A DNA stretch of 64,000 bases from GCF_056746865.1 NZ_CM163382.1; one strand, 5' to 3'; numbered from the stretch's first letter, positions 7,868 to 33,665 are shown. Notes: a model not told the origin generated them from the sequence alone. Numbers and translations are program-made.

Positions 7868-8542
7868 TTAAATCCAGCCGCGTTCGGCAAAAGAAACATA
7901 CTCTCCACGCCCAATCACGATATGGTCGAGCACGCGTAAATCCATGAACTGACAACTCTTTATTATCCGTTCAGTAATGAGTTTATCCGCTTTACTGGGT
8001 TCAGCACAACCCGAAGGGTGATTATGTGCAAGGATCAGCGCCGAGGCATTTATTTTTATCGCTTCGCGGATAATTTCCCGAGGATGGACTTCAACATGGT
8101 TTAGCGTGCCGGAAAAAAGACGGCTATGCGTTATAACCCGGTGTTGTGAGTCGAGAAAGATCACCATAAAGATCTCCCGCTCTTCACCCGTGAGCTGGCT
8201 TTGTAAAAATTCCCTCGTCATCTCCGGGCTGAGTAAAGGGCTTTCTTCACGCATCCGCACGTTGTAGTAACGCCGCGCCAGTTCAGCAATCCCCTTTAAC
8301 TGGGCAAATTTCGCCACGCCAATTCCATGAACGCCACTAAATTGTTCATATTCAGAGGTTAACAAGCCATAAAGAGAGCCGAAATTCTCCAGCATCTCTT
8401 TTGCCAGGGTTAATACATCTTTACCGCGCGTTCCGGTACGCAGAAATAGCGCCAGCAGCTCGACATCCGTTAAGGCGCTAATACCAAACTTCAGCATTTT
8501 TTCGCGCGGCATCAACAGCTGTGCATTGTTTTTCACCTTCAC
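7868..8542 (-). CDS. yicR: RadC-like JAB-domain protein (UPF0758)
   Basis: 224-aa ORF with HNHPSG JAMM motif; position between rpmB and coaBC matches K-12 yicR. Confidence 0.9.
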
Positions 8543-8707
8543 CTCCTTTGTGGTGCTCGCATCCTGTCATAGCCGTTCCGTTAAATCGACGGCCAGTTTT
8601 CAATCCTGGAAAGCGCCTCGCAAAGTGATTCTCAGGTGAAGGCACGACAACAAAAGTATTGTGATAAAATCGCCAACTTCTGGTGTCACCCAACAGGAAA
8701 AATCATC

Positions 8708-9928
8708 ATGAGCCTGGCCGGTAAAAAAATCGTTCTCGGCGTCAGCGGCGGTATTGCTGCCTATAAAACCCCTGAACTGGTGCGTCGTTTGCGCGATCGC
8801 GGGGCCGACGTCCGCGTAGCCATGACCGAAGCGGCAAAAGCCTTTATCACCCCACTTAGCTTGCAGGCGGTTTCTGGTTATCCCGTTTCCGACAGTCTGC
8901 TGGACCCGGCAGCCGAAGCCGCTATGGGCCATATTGAGCTGGGTAAATGGGCTGATTTAGTGATTCTCGCCCCTGCCACGGCAGATTTGATTGCCCGTGT
9001 TGCTGCCGGAATGGCGAATGATCTGGTATCGACGATTTGTCTGGCCACACCTGCGCCTGTAGCCGTGCTCCCCGCCATGAACCAGCAGATGTACCGTGCC
9101 GCTGCCACGCAGCATAATTTAGAGGTGCTTGCTTCCCGTGGTTTGCTCATCTGGGGGCCAGACAGTGGCAGTCAGGCTTGTGGTGATATCGGCCCTGGGC
9201 GAATGCTCGATCCGTTAACCATTGTTGATATGGCGGTAGCGTATTTTTCGCCCGTCAACGACCTGAAACATCTGAACATTATGATTACCGCCGGCCCGAC
9301 GCGTGAACCGCTCGATCCGGTGCGTTATATCTCTAATCACAGCTCAGGCAAGATGGGTTTTGCTATCGCCGCCGCCGCTGCCCGTCGTGGCGCGAACGTC
9401 ACGCTGGTATCAGGTCCGGTTTCACTACCGACGCCACCGTTTGTTAAACGTGTTGATGTGATGACTGCGCTGGAAATGGAAGCGGCCGTGAATGCTTCTG
9501 TACAGCAGCAAAATATTTTTATCGGTTGCGCCGCCGTGGCGGATTATCGCGCAGCTACCGTGGCCCCAGAGAAAATCAAAAAGCAGGCCACGCAGGGTGA
9601 TGAATTAACAATAAAAATGGTTAAAAACCCCGATATCGTCGCAGGCGTTGCCGCACTAAAAGACCATCGACCCTACGTCGTTGGATTTGCCGCCGAAACA
9701 AATAATGTGGAAGAATACGCCCGGCAAAAACGTATCCGTAAAAACCTTGATCTGATCTGCGCGAACGATGTTTCCCAGCCAACTCAAGGATTTAACAGCG
9801 ACAACAACGCATTACACCTTTTCTGGCAGGACGGAGATAAAGTCTTACCGCTTGAGCGCAAAGAGCTCCTTGGCCAATTATTACTCGACGAGATCGTGAC
9901 CCGTTATGATGAAAAAAATCGACGTTAA
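8708..9928 (+). CDS. coaBC: bifunctional phosphopantothenoylcysteine decarboxylase / synthetase
   Basis: Start at [20 protein letters not shown] (flavoprotein fold); 406 aa; the six-frame ORF has a 24-codon upstream extension. Confidence 0.95.
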
Positions 9929-15677: not shown

Positions 15678-15902
15678 CTGAATAGATTGAGCCTAGCTCG
15701 ACGGGGCGAAAAGCGGGAAGCCTTACCGCCTGGCTCAATCACAAAATAAGGCGCAGCGTAAAAGGTGACGCAATGAACGACTCTCATGAAACAACTGCGG
15801 TGCATAGAAATTAGACTGGCCCCCTGAATCTCCAGACAACCAATATCACTTAAATAAGTGATAGTCTTAATACTAGTTTTTAGACTAGTCATTGGAGAGC
15901 AG

Positions 15903-16268
15903 ATGATTGATGTCTTAGGACCGGAGAAACGCAGACGGCGTACTACACAGGAAAAGATCGCTATTGTTCAGCAGAGTTTTGAACCGGGAATGACGGTCTC
16001 CCTTGTTGCCCGGCAACACGGTGTGGCAGCCAGCCAGTTATTTCTCTGGCGCAAGCAATACCAGGAGGGAAGTCTTACTGCTGTGGCCGCAGGAGAGCAG
16101 GTCGTTCCTGCCTCTGAACTTGCTGCTGCCATGAAGCAGATTAAAGAACTCCAGCGCCTGCTCGGCAAAAAAACGATGGAAAATGAACTCCTTAAAGAAG
16201 CCGTTGAATACGGGCGTGCAAAAAAGTGGATAGCGCACGCGCCCTTATTGCCCGGGGATGGGGAGTAA
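15903..16268 (+). CDS. insC: IS2 transposase OrfA (InsC)
   Basis: [53 protein letters not shown] matches IS2 InsC. Confidence 0.9.
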
Positions 16269-17131
16269 GCTTAGTCAGCCGTTGTCTCCGGGTGTCGCGT
16301 GCGCAGTTGCACGTCATTCTCAGACGAACCGATGACTGGAAAGATGGTCGCCGCAGCCGTCACTCAGATGATACGGATGTGCTTCTCCGTATACACCATG
16401 TTATCGGAGAGCTGCCCACGTATGGTTATCGTCGGGTATGGGCGCTGCTTCGCAGACAGGCCGAACTTGATGGTATGCCTGCGATCAATGCCAAACGTGT
16501 TTACCGGATCATGCGCCAGAATGCGCTGTTGCTTGAGCGAAAAACCGCTGTACCGCCATCGAAACGGGCACATACTGGCAAAGTGGCCGTGAAAGAAAGC
16601 AATCAACGATGGTGCTCTGACGGGTTCGAGTTCCGCTGTGATAACGGAGAAAAACTGCGAGTCACGTTCGCGCTGGACTGCTGTGACCGTGAGGCACTGC
16701 ACTGGGCAGTCACTACGGGCGGCTTCGACAGTGAAACAGTACAGGACGTAATGCTGGGAGCGGTGGAACGCCGCTTCGGCAACGAGCTTCCGGCGTCTCC
16801 AGTAGAGTGGCTGACGGATAATGGTTCATGCTACCGGGCTAATGAAACACGGCAGTTTGCCCGGATGTTGGGGCTTGAACCGAAGAACACGGCGGTGCGG
16901 AGTCCGGAGAGTAACGGCATAGCAGAGAGCTTCGTGAAAACGATAAAGCGTGACTACATCAGTATCATGCCTAAACCAGACGGGTTAACGGCAGCAAAGA
17001 ACCTTGCAGAGGCGTTCGAGCATTATAACGAATGGCATCCGCATAGTGCACTGGGTTATCGCTCGCCACGGGAATATCTACGGCAGCGGGCCAGTAATGG
17101 GTTAAGTGATAACAGGTGTCTGGAAATATAG
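16226..17131 (+). CDS. insD: IS2 transposase OrfB (InsD), DDE integrase domain
   Basis: 301-aa ORF overlapping insC in another frame, as in IS3-family frameshifted transposases. Confidence 0.9.
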
Positions 17132-18090
17132 GGGCAAATCCAGAAATTTATGGCAGGAATCAGGTATTCCACCTTTGGACTACTGCACGATAGAGCGAGC
17201 ATCAAAATTATTAAATTGTGAAATTGATGATATATGGCATTGGAAAGATAGACTACATATAGACTTTTATGTCTATGCTGACTTTCTTGATTTCATTGAA
17301 GCTGATGCCACCATCCACTTCAAAAAAGATGCTGATTTTATAACTGATTTATTACTTATGTACCCAGAAGAAGTAAGGTTTACATTTCCTTTTCTTATTA
17401 CCAGCGCAAGCAACGAAGTTTATATCCCAGCATCTGAAAGCGGTGCTTATGAGCTATTTTATGCACATAAACCACTGACAGTTGAAGACAGAGACAATAA
17501 AAATGTTTTTGAACAAATTGGCAAAAACTCTTTTATTGTAAGAAAATCAATTGCATGTGGATTGTTGCGTGTACGCGGTAGTACAAAACGACATTATCAT
17601 TCACAAGAATGTGGAGAGCCATATGTGCGACTTGAAGCAACATTTGATTGTGATCTATATAAATTCAAAATGCAAAGTTCCCAGATTCACCTGAGTAGCC
17701 TGTCAGATAAAAACATTTATATAACAAAGGCTGATTTAGAATACCTTCACGACGCAAAGGTTAATGGAAGTTTTGACGCAGCTAAGAGCAAAAAACGATA
17801 CGAAATGGCGGTAGAACAGGAACTAATACCTGAAATAAAAAATAGCAACCATAATGCCGAGAGACATGCTGAAAACAGGGAAAAACTTTTCAAATCAGCA
17901 ATATATCTTTTGTCAAAGTATCCTGATGAATGCCGTGGCAAAAAGAAAGAAATAAGCCCTGAGAAGTGGCGGGATTGCATAGTGGCTCATAAAGACGAAA
18001 TTCCACCGTTAGCAATCACAAATGAAGATGTGATTTTGAGACACTTACGTGCTGCCGCCAACGGTAAGGGGTAGAGTAGCTAACTATTCA

Positions 18091-18835: not shown

Positions 18836-19669
18836 ATGAACATCGAAAAAAGCAGATTAATTTCTGAGGCCGCCCCTCATCTGAACGCCTCTCTGGGCAC
18901 AATTAACGGTAATGAATTTGCCGCAATTGTCCCGGTTATTCCTGGTCATATCGGTGGGCGTGAAACCAATATTGTTAGCGCAAAAGCGTTACACAAAGCG
19001 TTGGGCGTGGGAAAAGACTTCTCTACATGGATCACTGATCGCATCTCTGAATATGACTTCACCATTGGGCACGATTACTCAGTCCATAAAACAATTTCCC
19101 CAAATTTGGGGAAAAGCCCGAATGGCGCGGCTTACAGCAAGATTAAGCAGTCTGGCAGACCCGGCAAAGACTATCTGTTAAGTGTCGGAATGGCGAAAGA
19201 ACTGGCAATGATCGAACGCAATGATCAGGGTCGCGCTATCCGTCGTTATTTCATCCAGTGCGAGGAAGAATTACAGCGTAGCGTGCCTGAAATCGCCGCC
19301 CGCTATCGTCGCCAGCTAAAAGCCCGTATCAGTGCCGCAAACAACTTTAAGCCAATGTGCGATGCGCTGAATATGGCCCGTGCCGAGCAGGGGAAAACGA
19401 CGCAGCAACACCACTACACAAACGAGAGCAATATGATTTCTCGTATCGTTCTTGGTGGGCTAACTGCTAAGCAGTGGGCGCGGATAAATGGCTATTCTGG
19501 CGAACCTCGCGACCATATGAACGCAGAACAACTTGAGCACCTCTCATATCTCGAAAGCACCAATATCACGTTAATTGATATGGGCATGGAATATGAGCAG
19601 CGCAAAGGAGAACTCACCCGCCTGTCGCAACGCTGGCTCGCCAAGCGTCTGGAGGCGGTCCATGTTTAA
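18836..19669 (+). CDS. phage antirepressor-like protein (KilA-C/Ant-type C-terminal region)
   Basis: 277 aa; C-terminal segment ...GRAIRRYFIQCEEELQ resembles antirepressor proteins; assignment from memory. Confidence 0.55.
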   Translation: MNIEKSRLISEAAPHLNASLGTINGNEFAAIVPVIPGHIGGRETNIVSAKALHKALGVGKDFSTWITDRISEYDFTIGHDYSVHKTISPNLGKSPNGAAYSKIKQSGRPGKDYLLSVGMAKELAMIERNDQGRAIRRYFIQCEEELQRSVPEIAARYRRQLKARISAANNFKPMCDALNMARAEQGKTTQQHHYTNESNMISRIVLGGLTAKQWARINGYSGEPRDHMNAEQLEHLSYLESTNITLIDMGMEYEQRKGELTRLSQRWLAKRLEAVHV

Positions 19670-19837
19670 GCCGACAGGAACACCACAACCTCAAAAACGC
19701 TACAAAGATGCCCACGGAGCACTCGTTACTGTCGAAAGCGTGTCTCACAACCGAGTGACGTTTTATCGCGACGGGTATCAATCGCCATGCGTACAACCGC
19801 TGGCGCGCTTCATGAAGGAGTTCGCGGAGGTTAACAA

Positions 19838-20869
19838 ATGCTAACCGTCCAGAAGAAGATATTTTCACTGACTGCTATGTTGCAAAAATCCAGCAATATG
19901 ACAGCAAAGTCTGGCATTAATACAGCAGATACAAGCAAAGCTTATCATTTTATGGTGGTAGGAGCGGATGCCTTAACTATGTCAGAAATTACGGTCGATG
20001 GTGTTAGCGTTGAGAAGGTCAGCGGCTGCGCCAGAGAATTTCTGGTCGTAGATGGCTTTCTCTTCTCGCGTAGTGACTCCACAAAAACCTTCGTCCATGC
20101 GCGTGACGTTAACGAAATGAGCGCGATGTACTGTGCATCTGGTGCTTCCAATAGCGAGTTTTCGGAGTCCATAAAAAAGAGCTTGCCGTTATGCGGCAAC
20201 ACGGTTTATGGTTATAAGGCACCTCATAAAACGGGTGCCGGGATTGGCCTCCCGCTGGAGTTATCGGCGATACATGACGCGCCAGCGTCTTTTTTTGTAT
20301 CGGCGCACACGCACACCTTATCAATGGTGGGCTGTATGGGGCTACCTTCGGGTAGGCTGGTTTCCGATAACGCCAGTAAGGCCAACTCCGTACAGTCCAC
20401 CGCCAGCAAGATTGGTCTCTTCTGCGGTGGTTATAACAAGCCAACGTTATCGGAGGATGCCACATGCTGGCTACTACCCCTACCCAAAAACCGCAATTTA
20501 TCTGGATTATCGCCGCAGTTCGCCGCGATTGCCCGACAATTACCGCCAAAATTCATCATATTGCTGCCGAGTCTGAACGTGATGCTCGCCGTTCTCTGGT
20601 GCGCGATCACGTCTGCTTTTTTGCTGGTCGTATCCGCATGGAGGTGGCTCATGATTAAAACCTACGATGTGCATATGGATCCCCTCGAACGCACAAGCCA
20701 GATCATCACACTGACAGAAGTGATTAACGACATTCTGGTGAGCAACTCTCCCTCACGAGACGAAAGACTGAAGGCGTTACTCGCGATATTGGATCTCGCC
20801 GTTCGTGACGTTCATTTCCTGCTGGAAGGTGGCGAAATGCCAGTAAAAACGGGGGCAACCAATGAATAA
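19838..20869 (+). CDS. hypothetical ORF (343 aa as read; may instead be two or three small genes)
   Basis: Long open frame, but an alternative-frame small ORF 20464-20658 has a GGAGGA SD and an in-frame internal start MIKTYD at ~20654 has a GGAGG SD; gene structure unresolved. Confidence 0.3.
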
Positions 20870-21056
20870 CTCAATTAATACCCCTCGCCTTACGTCCGCA
20901 CTTCAATTAATCGAGCAAGCAGCGGCTGTCCTGGTTGCTGTCAGTCTTTCGGCTGAAGAAATGGACGCTACTGATGTCGTGGATGCGATTAAAGCGTGCT
21001 CATCTTTGGTTAACGATGCCCGTGCAGAGCTGGTAATTCTTGGGGGTGAAAAATGA
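20862..21056 (+). CDS. hypothetical small protein (64 aa)
   Basis: Start overlaps the upstream stop; part of a co-directional overlapping ORF chain. Confidence 0.45.
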   Translation: MNNSINTPRLTSALQLIEQAAAVLVAVSLSAEEMDATDVVDAIKACSSLVNDARAELVILGGEK

Positions 21057-21316
21057 ATATCAACTTAATTTATCGTCATCCGTGTGAGCTGGAAATTGAA
21101 TCATTGCTGAGCCGTGAAGAGCCATATCCAGACACATTCACTCTTGCAGATCGCACGACTGAACGGCTTACCAGAGCGCGCACAGGTCTGGTTCATGTGA
21201 TGAATGAGATTCTTCCATCGGTGGGAGGGGAACAGGCGACAGTAATCACTAGCTGGCTACAAAAAGTTACCTCTCTGATAGATATCAGTTTAATCGATGC
21301 GGAGAGTGCGAAATGA
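21053..21316 (+). CDS. hypothetical small protein (87 aa)
   Basis: ATGA overlap with the upstream ORF. Confidence 0.5.
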   Translation: MNINLIYRHPCELEIESLLSREEPYPDTFTLADRTTERLTRARTGLVHVMNEILPSVGGEQATVITSWLQKVTSLIDISLIDAESAK

Positions 21317-21534
21317 CCAACATCCAGCTCATTGAAGCGCAATGTCGCATCGAACAGGTTCAGACTGTTTTAGGGTTCTGGCTTGAAGGGGCCAGCCCCA
21401 GCAACAGAGACAAGTTAATGATTGGCGCGGTTATGTCACTGCTCAATGGCGTACCAGAAGCTATTCAGGAAGCAGACGAATTGTTGGGCAAATATGAGTT
21501 ACAGAATCATTCAGGCGAGGCGAAACATGAATAA
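21313..21534 (+). CDS. hypothetical small protein (73 aa)
   Basis: ATGA overlap with the upstream ORF. Confidence 0.45.
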   Translation: MTNIQLIEAQCRIEQVQTVLGFWLEGASPSNRDKLMIGAVMSLLNGVPEAIQEADELLGKYELQNHSGEAKHE

Positions 21535-22129
21535 TTTCTTAACGTTCCATGCAGAAGCAACGCCTGACGGCGTAAACATCATGCACCGCAGCAACGATGG
21601 CATGACAGAACGCGTTGAGGCCGTCTCATATATTGATGCCGTAAATCGTCTGGATGACGGGGATTATGACGATAAACCAGATGAAGGTATGTCAATACAT
21701 CTCGCTATTGCCGATGGCGGCAACCAGGGATATTTCGATTACACATCACAGCATAACGTCATTATGTGGAGATGGCTGATCGCAACAGTATTCATGCTGG
21801 AAATGAGAGAGGAAAACGGCACTGTCAGCATCATTGATGATACTGGCAATCCTTCCGAAGTGGCTGTTTATTCCAACGGCATCGTCGCCATGCCGCTGTA
21901 TCCAGTAGCAGAGCGCCTCGCTATGGCAAACAACATTGAGGGCGCGATGATAGAACGTTTTGGCATCGAGTCTGGCACAGAACGCGCCATCATTTTCTAC
22001 AGAGCCATGATGGATGTGGAACAAGGAGCACTGACTCCATTTGGTCGTGAAACGCTTGCTGAACTTCACAACAGCTTTATAGCTGAACTGAATGAAAACG
22101 GCATGCCAGCGGAACCAGTGACGCACTAA
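21527..22129 (+). CDS. hypothetical protein (~201 aa, start at MNNFLTFHAE)
   Basis: Internal start overlapping the upstream stop; acidic protein. Confidence 0.55.
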   Translation: MNNFLTFHAEATPDGVNIMHRSNDGMTERVEAVSYIDAVNRLDDGDYDDKPDEGMSIHLAIADGGNQGYFDYTSQHNVIMWRWLIATVFMLEMREENGTVSIIDDTGNPSEVAVYSNGIVAMPLYPVAERLAMANNIEGAMIERFGIESGTERAIIFYRAMMDVEQGALTPFGRETLAELHNSFIAELNENGMPAEPVTH

Positions 22130-22139
22130 GGATGGAGCC

Positions 22140-22481
22140 ATGATTACTAAAAATTTCCGACTGAATGCGCTGGCAAATAAGTATGCGTCGGCACTGTATA
22201 ACCACATTACCTCCACCAGCGGCGGGGACTATTTCATGATTGATGCGGACGGAGAGGCCGTCCGTGTGGAAATCGTCAATGGAGTAAAAGGCGTTCGCAG
22301 CCTGATCGATAGTTACGCACTGGCAGCCATGAAAGTGTTCTACCCGCAGTGGGAAACCGTGGGGATCGAGCTTCTTGATCGTTGCGTCACTAAGGACGGA
22401 TTGACTGACGCCGGGCGTGAGATATGGCAAAGCATGGTTAATGACATGGGCGCAACTGTAGCGGGAGGTTCTCATGCGTGA
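22140..22481 (+). CDS. hypothetical protein (113 aa)
   Basis: Co-directional, closely spaced. Confidence 0.55.
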   Translation: MITKNFRLNALANKYASALYNHITSTSGGDYFMIDADGEAVRVEIVNGVKGVRSLIDSYALAAMKVFYPQWETVGIELLDRCVTKDGLTDAGREIWQSMVNDMGATVAGGSHA

Positions 22482-22845
22482 AAATGCAGAAATGGCGCTT
22501 AGCTCCGCAATCGGAGAGCAGGTGGCAAAGATTGCTGGTGCTGTGTGGATTCATAACCTTCATTCTACTGGTGAAGAGAAAATGGCAATTCAGACGCCAG
22601 AGGGACGCACCATTACTACATCTCTGAAGCCGTCAGATGTTTGTGATCTGATTTGCGCATTCATGTACCCAGCAATGAGGACTGTCCACGGCGATAAGTG
22701 GAAACTTGCGACAACCGCTGAATTTGATATGTGGCTAAACAATGATGGCATGCTGACTGATTACGGAATAACCAAGTGGCAGATGCTGGTTAGCCATATC
22801 GCAAACGCTATAGACCACGTGGGGTACGGTGATGCGAAACATTGA
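22474..22845 (+). CDS. hypothetical protein (123 aa)
   Basis: Overlaps neighbours at both ends. Confidence 0.55.
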   Translation: MRENAEMALSSAIGEQVAKIAGAVWIHNLHSTGEEKMAIQTPEGRTITTSLKPSDVCDLICAFMYPAMRTVHGDKWKLATTAEFDMWLNNDGMLTDYGITKWQMLVSHIANAIDHVGYGDAKH

Positions 22846-33115: not shown

Positions 33116-33665
33116 CTAATAAGCCCGGTACGCCGGGCATTTATGCCCCTATTATTCATGAATCGCTTTTTCTAGAAGGTATGCGACAAACGTTAAGTGA
33201 CATTGCCTACACATTCGGGGCGGGATTTCAAATCCGCTCCCAGTTGATGGGGGGCGTTACAGTACGCGCATATCCGCTTTATGTGAAACAGGAAGATTTT
33301 TCTGATATCACTGCCACAGCAAAACACCAATTTCGTGACCAGTACGCGCGCGAGGGGCATCAGTTGCAAAAAGTTTTGCAACTGCGTCCGACCAGTACAC
33401 ACACGATGGCGGTGGATACCATAAAACTGTTCTCTACATGAGACAGAGTGGTGGTGATGTGTTGATTATCGGCGTATATGCGCACAGGTCGCGCTATGAC
33501 GATGTTTTATGCGGGTACACCAATCACATGTATCTGATGTGATAAATCGCGTTACATGACCTCTCTGTTGTGCTGGTGGTTATCACGACGTTCTGAATCT
33601 GGCTTTTGTCTGATATTTTGCGACAAGTACGCGCGCGTAGCATCGACAGCATACACATTGGATAT

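Follow-up and report, generated by a model that had tools for sequence, protein, structure and literature searches.

The window analysed here, a stretch of 64 000 nucleotides (nt) from GCF_056746865.1 (NZ_CM163382.1), contains ten open reading frames (ORFs), all in the same direction, between an AntA-type antirepressor-family gene at 18836 and a primase gene at 22832. Eight stop/start overlaps, a 14-nt overlap into the primase gene and a single 10-nt gap join them into a chain. We consider it probable that this stretch is the early (replication) operon of a phage-inducible chromosomal island (PICI) resembling EcCIMP1, and that its head, which a first-pass annotation made from the sequence alone had left as 'unresolved', is an RNA immunity switch of the P4 type. 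That annotation had rightly described overlapping, co-directional small ORFs upstream of the primase, and our ORF listing reproduced their coordinates; it missed, however, the two RNA genes at the core, isrK and C4, and the long frame of 343 amino acids (aa) that runs across them appears to be neither a normal gene nor a chance ORF.

Both RNA genes are recognised by their Rfam models above the gathering scores (Table 1), and the pair is also present in P4 itself and in every related locus tested, with the exception of an Escherichia sp. contig (L020) where C4 was found and isrK gave no match at the gathering score. A third Rfam model, c4-a1b1, matches a locus from another island family (L008) over its gathering score and P4 slightly under it (44.1 versus 46.7 bits). 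C4 carries two antisense elements, a′ and b′, each with one target inside isrK (a1, b1) and one downstream of C4 (a2, b2); the b2 target contains the Shine-Dalgarno (SD) sequence GGAGG of icd (20452-20456), and in the window b′ and b2 can form 12 contiguous pairs, GGAGG included. Further evidence comes from an alignment of 18 distinct versions of the region, comprising the window, its E. coli relatives, IMG/VR contigs, P4 and loci from other genera (Klebsiella, Enterobacter, Kosakonia, Kluyvera and Lonsdalea) that were located via Icd. Across nine variants of b′ and eight of a′, each antisense element varies jointly with both of its targets, i.e. in a three-way covariation. An element's own b′ and b2 form 8-12 contiguous pairs; the mean is 10.5 and drops to 5.4 when b′ and b2 are taken from different elements. 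The a′-a1 and a′-a2 pairings are 7 nt long in every element. Within C4 itself, 18 of the 28 predicted helix pairs are maintained through compensatory double changes in a set of 14 sequences, one of which was mis-specified and hence scored as 'broken'. Taken together, these comparisons indicate that the antisense system is under selection.

The covariation implies many immunity specificities. Between the window and a relative that is 98.7% identical (L001), five bases of the loop differ, with matching changes in b1 and b2. The b′ specificity of the window, CCGATAACG, is unlike that of all E. coli relatives which are at least 97% identical and is the same as that of a Klebsiella michiganensis island (L012), which points to exchange or convergence of immunity specificities. 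As to the spread of the module, a query with 19662-21060 matched 2251 of 5426 complete E. coli genomes; for most of the lower-identity matches listed, the alignment is limited to the segment from isrK through C4 to the start of icd (cf. 20202-20505 in the window). The RNA core alone is detectable in more than 2000 complete E. coli genomes, and about 480 carry most of the stretch, at a spot that is inconsistently annotated and for which a gene structure can now be given. Elsewhere the isrK-C4 core is found on plasmids of 88-99 kb and in Stx phages, with Rha or Ant genes following it in place of icd.

Table 1. Features of the early operon, of the terS fragment antisense to it and of the late zone (positions in the window; the last column gives the junction with the following gene)
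Feature	Position	Strand	Evidence or remark	Junction
AntA/Bro-type antirepressor-family gene, head of the coupled chain	18836..19669	+	Pfam AntA, 77.6 bits	ATGTTTAA
DUF4222 gene, 60 aa	19662..19844	+	Pfam DUF4222, 87 bits	ATGCTAA; DUF4222 stop overlaps long-ORF start
343-aa long ORF	19838..20869	+	Pfam Phage_ASH; counterpart of P4 eta ('Ash family')	ATGAATAA (to p64)
P22-like small-terminase (terS/gp3) gene fragment, antisense to long ORF	19986..20103	-	terS nt 259/264-374	
22-mer GAAGGTTTTTGTGGAGTCACTA	20071..20092	-	at P22 pac position; aligns with GAAGATTTATCTGAAGTCGTTA of P22-type terS	
Putative constitutive promoter of isrK-C4 transcript, TTGCCG-N18-TATGGT	20183..20212	+	putative counterpart of P4 PLE	
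isrK/seqA-type RNA	20219..20295	+	Rfam isrK, 64.3 bits (gathering score 50)	
Target a1	20244-20250	+	inside isrK	
Target b1	20260-20267	+	inside isrK	
Intrinsic terminator closing isrK	20276-20297	+	terminator scan	
C4/P4-CI-type antisense RNA	20320..20407	+	full-length match to Rfam C4, 77.1 bits (gathering score 45)	
b′ loop of C4	20361-20372	+		
a′ of C4	20379-20385	+		
Downstream targets	20408..20456	+	a2 20412-20418; b2 20445-20456	
icd/kil-like gene, 64 aa	20464..20658	+	SD GGAGG 7 nt upstream; NCBIfam phage_ICD_like, 71.7 bits	ATGATTAA
p72 (MIKTYD...), 72 aa	20651..20869	+	SD GGAGGT at 5 nt; same frame as 343-aa ORF	ATGAATAA
p64	20862..21056	+	small ORF, E. coli islands only	ATGA
p87	21053..21316	+	55-59% homologues in 7 loci	ATGA
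p73	21313..21534	+	41-43% homologues; phrog_20558	ATGAATAA
p200	21527..22129	+	59-64% homologues in 8 loci; phrog_1515, 160.7 bits	10-nt gap
p113	22140..22481	+	70-91% homologues; phrog_37628, 169 bits	ATGCGTGA
p123	22474..22845	+	52-71% full-length homologues in Kluyvera, Citrobacter, Serratia	14-nt overlap
Primase/helicase (DUF5906 type), last gene of the operon	22832..25183 (or GTG 22829)	+	PGAP name of 99.9%-identical protein	
DUF2824 gene, late zone	27098-27559	+		
gp7, late zone	27553-28230	+		
gp20-like injectosome translocase, late zone	28230-29549	+		
908-aa protein, late zone	29540-32266	+	SLT lytic transglycosylase domain	

The 343-aa frame and the genes that follow it

The long ORF overlies a terS gene fragment, the putative promoter, isrK, C4 and the C4 targets; it also overlies icd, in a different reading frame, and its last part shares the frame of p72. 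It might be a conventional protein gene, either of the 'Ash family' or a regulator in a Bro network, with a functional amino-acid sequence which the 64-aa ORF and the RNAs merely overlap. This is how NCBI annotates most relatives, the frame is open in nearly all of them, and besides Phage_ASH several PHROG 'transcriptional regulator/repressor' families match above threshold. However, the family match (PF10554, the sole Pfam match of the ORF, 39 bits versus a cut-off of 26) covers aa 124-220, i.e. nt 20207-20497, and is confined to the nucleotides encoding isrK and C4, where substitutions track base-pairing rather than codons. The N-terminal third is a mosaic that changes from family to family, and in the window this third corresponds to the complementary strand of part of a terminase gene; the C-terminus is Icd or p72 according to the island, as set by an indel of 1-2 nt. 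Moreover, in every group the three codon positions share the variable sites evenly: the counts for positions 1/2/3 are 22/13/18, 40/53/50 and 41/44/50 in the upstream part, and 29/25/35, 45/44/48 and 25/37/31 in the RNA part, where the test gave no sign of purifying selection on the Phage_ASH amino-acid sequence. A conventional protein gene is, for these reasons, very unlikely. The same lack of amino-acid constraint would suit the idea that the frame is a meaningless by-product, persisting by descent, with function confined to icd, p72 and the two RNAs. The frame is indeed interrupted in MDR_56 and Z1323CEC0005 with no other visible damage, and most E. coli relatives are at least 90% identical. 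What speaks against a by-product is that the frame is open in all 16 aligned loci, from eight genera, despite hundreds of substitutions and many indels, including places where the length is not a multiple of three. About 3.5% of random substitutions give a stop, so that the 933 or more substitutions in these loci would be expected to yield about 32 stops overall, and none is seen; within single family groups, 3-9 stops are expected and the probability of finding none is 1e-4 to 4e-2. Among the 14 loci scanned, the frame at offset +1 from the start of C4 has no stop from 280-516 nt upstream of isrK through C4, and it is also open in three loci considered later (L033, L034 and EcCIMP1), whereas the two remaining frames contain 3-16 stops in the upstream part of the 12 loci tabulated. 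Its start is always coupled: it overlaps the stop of the upstream gene by 1-14 nt in 17 out of 17 loci, whichever that gene is (DUF4222, AntA or others), and a GGAGG-like SD precedes it in nearly all of them. Finally, the P4 homologue is reported to be translated, and its translation to prevent termination (PMC10111431, citing Forti 1999). Mere persistence by descent thus appears unlikely. An open frame with a coupled start and no amino-acid constraint suggests that translation is selected, and not the protein. Most simply, the 343-aa ORF can be read as a translated leader comparable to P4 eta, of which the amino-acid sequence would be largely irrelevant; the Pfam 'Ash' family would then be the translation of two RNA genes within a leader ORF, open but unconserved.

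Several observations weigh against a P4-type switch with a translated leader, or limit how far it can be taken. The long frame is broken in two of about 22 relatives (L002 and L005) and is, therefore, not indispensable. The pooled substitution count is inflated by poorly alignable mosaic segments, which makes the per-group figures the safer ones. The relation of the long frame to icd also differs from that in P4. P4 and 9 of the 14 loci scanned have icd and the long frame in one reading frame, closed by the icd stop, at a distance of 142 or 139 nt from C4 to icd; in the family of the window and in the K. michiganensis island this distance is 141 or 144 nt (144 in the window), icd is read in the +1 frame, and the long frame ends at the stop of the next ORF, 211 nt past icd in the window. 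An eta/kil pair nested in one frame with a common stop is thus absent from the window, and the nested logic of P4 is not literally transferable to this family. The putative internal promoter at 20183-20212 belongs to a block conserved in every relative and can be aligned with the P4 sequence preceding seqA; however, it scores under the threshold of a consensus scan. Lastly, the window and three relatives (L001, L002 and L003) are without a block of 36-39 nt between the isrK terminator, the only terminator detected by the scan, and C4 (around 20305-20320 in the window). The block is present in EcCIMP1, L004-L006 and L011 (L004:3136-3197) and contains TGGTTATAAT, with a TATAAT-like box, a likely C4-proximal promoter; in the window, C4 may therefore have to be supplied by transcription reading through the isrK terminator. 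As a separate observation, the frame crossing C4 in the Escherichia sp. contig (L020:2374-4233) forms an ORF of 619 aa that runs 535 nt past icd.

The first-pass annotation had singled out the 64-aa ORF for its strong SD, and it proved to be a real gene: its product matches the Icd-like family of cell-division inhibitors and is 43% identical to the C-terminal portion of the long ORF in P4, and its variable sites fall at 20/18/50 for the three codon positions in 16 sequences. Corresponding counts are 22/23/50 for DUF4222, 46/30/72 for p87, 30/18/46 for p73, 91/72/170 for p200 and 32/26/79 for p113. The codon-level comparison of related islands that had been proposed as a check therefore gave a third-position excess in icd and in the genes after it, and none in the 343-aa frame. 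Homologues of the AntA-type gene are 60-99% identical in 14 loci, and the primase is 32.5% identical to P4 alpha. Since six genes either have a strong third-position excess across genera or have homologues of 52-71% identity in other genera, the chain is no chance pattern, and these comparisons identify Icd, p87, p73, p200, p113 and p123 as conserved coding genes. The weakest gene calls are p72, the weakest of all, and p64. The former can be read on its own, from a start coupled to the icd stop, and also supplies the last 72 residues of the 343-aa product. An SD-preceded start in frame with the long ORF had correctly been noticed for it, although the ATG lies at 20651 and not at 20654, and its treatment as a gene of its own agrees with relatives in which the long frame is broken and this ORF is annotated separately. 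Its homologues come from close relatives only, mostly E. coli (with one partial Salmonella record), and include C-terminal frameshift variants; two of them, at 67% and 84% identity, were tried for the codon test and proved to be deletion or frameshift variants. For p64 the codon-position counts are 2/0/6, the homologues are 66-98% identical and all source-named ones are from E. coli; it is absent from L033, and in most other genera p87 directly follows icd. The warning that annotation by length is unreliable here was justified, since the NCBI pipeline labels the same stretch in five ways among close relatives: a 342-355-aa 'ash' protein; an ash of 126 aa with Icd and a 72-aa protein; a frameshifted Icd pseudogene with a 72-aa protein; a 291-aa 'Icd-like' protein; or a partial ash pseudogene with Icd.

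What the small genes between icd and the primase do is a matter on which the first-pass annotation had favoured helper interference or derepression. In P4, eps, orf151 and orf106 occupy the same position, between kil and alpha, and it is from this analogy of position with epsilon that the proposal draws its support. Effectors directed at the helper would also be consistent with the conservation across genera, with the strong third-position excess at variable sites, and with p72 and p64 being lineage-specific insertions, as accessory effectors often are. However, our searches brought no similarity to any protein known to act in this way: the PHROGs search of the small ORFs returned families of unknown function only, no relatives of eps, orf151 or orf106 emerged when the small proteins were compared with P4 by tblastn, PADLOC gave no match, and sequence searches of the PDB with p200 and p113 profiles gave nothing usable. 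The small ORFs between icd and the primase thus showed, in these searches, no similarity to P4 Eps, to defence or anti-defence proteins or to solved structures, and an AlphaFold2 model of p200, built on a 10-sequence alignment, was unusable (predicted local distance difference test score, pLDDT, 43.8). Replication accessory proteins would fit equally well. We therefore hold an effector role for these genes to be possible but somewhat doubtful; it is compatible with the P4-type switch, not opposed to it. What can be demonstrated for the region is control of the island's own immunity and replication.

Known switches and a proposed mechanism

The order of the P4 immunity region is PLL-orf88/alpA-eta[PLE, seqA, cI RNA, seqC, kil]-eps-orf151-orf106-alpha. 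The window resembles it in having an alpA-type gene upstream, then a long ORF coupled to the preceding gene, isrK/seqA and C4/CI, a target over the ribosome-binding site of an Icd/Kil-like gene, small coupled ORFs and finally the primase gene. On the minus strand of P4, the long ORF (old name 'cI gene product') lies at 8168-8812, isrK/seqA at 8615-8692 and C4/CI at 8420-8507. This ORF, which corresponds to eta with kil nested in it, matches Phage_ASH at aa 37-161, over seqA and cI, and contains an Icd-like domain at aa 161-208. Accordingly, the features shared with P4 include the antisense RNA with its two hairpins and tRNA-like closing stem, an upstream target copy on one transcript with it, a downstream target masking a ribosome-binding site, a Kil/Icd-like first gene and a coupled long ORF. 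The differences are that eta and kil share frame and stop in P4, whereas in the window the long frame is offset from that of icd and closes together with p72; that alpA is separated from the long ORF by AntA, p143 and DUF4222; that the small downstream genes are unrelated to eps, orf151 and orf106; and that the island has P22-type ejection genes in place of sid, delta and psu. It has already been noted that the C4 and isrK models match PICIs of Gram-negative bacteria (PMC10111431). The module and the island family are thus known, and the only new points are the frame-shifted eta/icd arrangement and the packaging hypothesis discussed below, which can be tested.

Two other systems are of interest for comparison. 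The immI region of phages P1 and P7 (a1 b1 - c4 - a2 b2 - icd - ant) likewise has a C4 with two antisense elements, each with an upstream and a downstream target, a downstream target that masks the icd ribosome-binding site, and specificity variants that arise through co-variation. The closest match among phage records is a P1-sized phage (95 kb), with 85% identity over 20202-20505 and an 'Icd protein' annotated there. In the window, however, the antirepressor-family gene is upstream of the switch, whereas the ant gene of P1 is downstream and coupled to icd; no such ant gene follows icd in the window, where the next gene, p72, has no family match, and the cargo under control is the primase operon. 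P1 is not known to have a long overlapping ORF. In the isrK-orf45-anrP region of Gifsy-1, from Salmonella, the ORF over the processed RNA derived from orf45 (STnc1160) is conserved as nucleotides and not as amino acids, and is required for translational coupling (PMC4825925). Common to both are an isrK RNA that carries its own terminator, downstream of it a processed RNA with an ORF over it, and AUGA coupling to the next gene. The overlapping ORF of Gifsy-1 differs in being 45 codons long and in starting after isrK; the downstream gene is an antirepressor, and IsrK is a trans-acting activator.

For P4, transcription that starts at the internal constitutive promoter is cut short by CI-seqA interactions, and eta is translated only from the upstream promoter, by coupling to the alpA homologue, its translation preventing termination (PMC10111431, summarising Sabbattini 1995 and Forti 1999). 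A comparable logic with two regimes can be proposed for the island, in which we infer the position of the promoter, the termination after icd and the two regimes themselves. In the quiescent state, the weak internal promoter (~20183-20212) would give rise to the 77-nt isrK/seqA RNA, stopped at its own terminator, and read-through would produce the C4/CI antisense RNA. Pairing of a′ and b′ with a2 and b2 would mask the icd SD and leave icd untranslated; because each later gene starts on the preceding stop, the untranslated transcript would be expected to terminate, with the genes from p72 through the primase remaining silent. On induction, the helper phage would switch on the upstream alpA promoter (for induction of alpA by a helper, see PMC11773190), and ribosomes arriving via DUF4222 could re-start on ATGCTAA and read the 343-aa frame through a1/b1, C4, a2/b2 and icd. 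Translation of the long frame would make the transcript insensitive to C4 and to termination; the ribosomes would stop at 20869 on ATGAATAA and pass to p64, and from there on to the primase.

The island and its candidate packaging sites

The island extends over about 14.4-35.7 kb of the window, and the segments that it shares with EcCIMP1 are 97-99% identical. EcCIMP1 is the PICI of E. coli MP1 for which induction, excision and transfer by a helper, the P22-like phage Kapi1, have been shown (PMC11773190). In the island of the window the zone order int - alpA - Bro - primase - late is found, and there is synteny with ECONIH1, MDR_56 and MP1; by these comparisons it is an EcCIMP1-like PICI. It shares with EcCIMP1 the terS fragment, the long ORF and the order of the genes that run from AlpA to those for ejection proteins. 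It differs in being integrated beside yicC (as is ECONIH1) and not at tRNA-Thr/proA, in its primase (DUF5906 versus TOPRIM/DUF927 type), in an insertion sequence (IS) at 15813-17141, in a 39-nt deletion upstream of C4 and in its b′ immunity specificity.

The fragment of a small-terminase gene that lies antisense to the long ORF may have a role of its own. It is 85-88% identical to terS nt 268-374 of 117 P22-like phages and 92.4% identical, over 118 nt, to terS of three IMG/VR phage contigs (L025, L027 and L028), and it starts where P22 has its pac site, with the core AAGATTTATCTG (PMC11226127). In about 220 E. coli genomes only the fragment of terS occurs, inside 'ash' coding sequences. The equivalent N-terminal segment of L008, from another island family, gave no phage match, so that the fragment appears specific to the family of the window. 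The 22-mer at the pac position is identical in the complete terS genes of the three contigs, is also present in EcCIMP1, and agrees with the P22 core at 9 of 12 positions. Two arguments were tried and dropped: a pseudo-pac pattern match (16/17) occurs at chance rate (6 found versus 4 expected in the window), and a 22-mer free of mismatches within the 118-nt phage alignment is not significant alone (~0.15, an estimate). The reading is weakened by a substitution in the 22-mer in 4 of 16 islands.

We tentatively suggest that the antisense fragment (19986-20103, with the 22-mer at 20071-20092) may be the packaging signal of the island, i.e. that PICIs of the EcCIMP1 type, which have no terminase of their own, are packaged through a copy of the pac sequence found in P22-like helpers, though we would not put this forward as the likelier outcome. 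It would provide a concrete candidate for a PICI family under experimental study, and the preferred helpers would be P22-like phages with a matching TerS variant; one P22-like prophage with such a terS is present in NZ_CP174273. The packaging mechanism of EcCIMP1 has been stated to be unknown and its transfer to be very inefficient (PMC11773190); if the suggestion is right, this inefficiency would be explained, since Kapi1 has an unrelated TerS of 142 aa and no sequence matching the 22-mer. An intergenic site, GAAGATTTTTCTGATATCACTG, at 33291-33312 (+) matches the P22 core at 11 of 12 positions, with about 0.09 such matches expected by chance in the island, and together with its 20-nt flanks is identical in the ECONIH1 island and EcCIMP1. 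It may be regarded as a second, equally plausible candidate pac site.

Some further observations concern the remainder of the island. Its late zone (27098-32266, +) consists of P22-type genes in a satellite that has neither capsid nor terminase genes, the island as a whole carrying P22-type gp14, gp7, gp20-like and gp16-like genes; the segment 28390-33217 matches EcCIMP1, and no nucleotide match to it was obtained in the ECONIH1 island segments compared. The insertion at 15813-17141 is of the IS3 family (orfB at 16226-17131), lies between the int-alpA RNA motif and a 322-aa ORF and is absent from the ECONIH1 island; it cuts int off from the remaining island genes, with a possible effect on alpA-operon expression. 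The Rfam int-alpA RNA motif itself (15686-15752, +; 60.6 bits, gathering score 35.8) is located between the integrase gene and the IS, and is also found in four related loci (L011, L014, L018 and L019).

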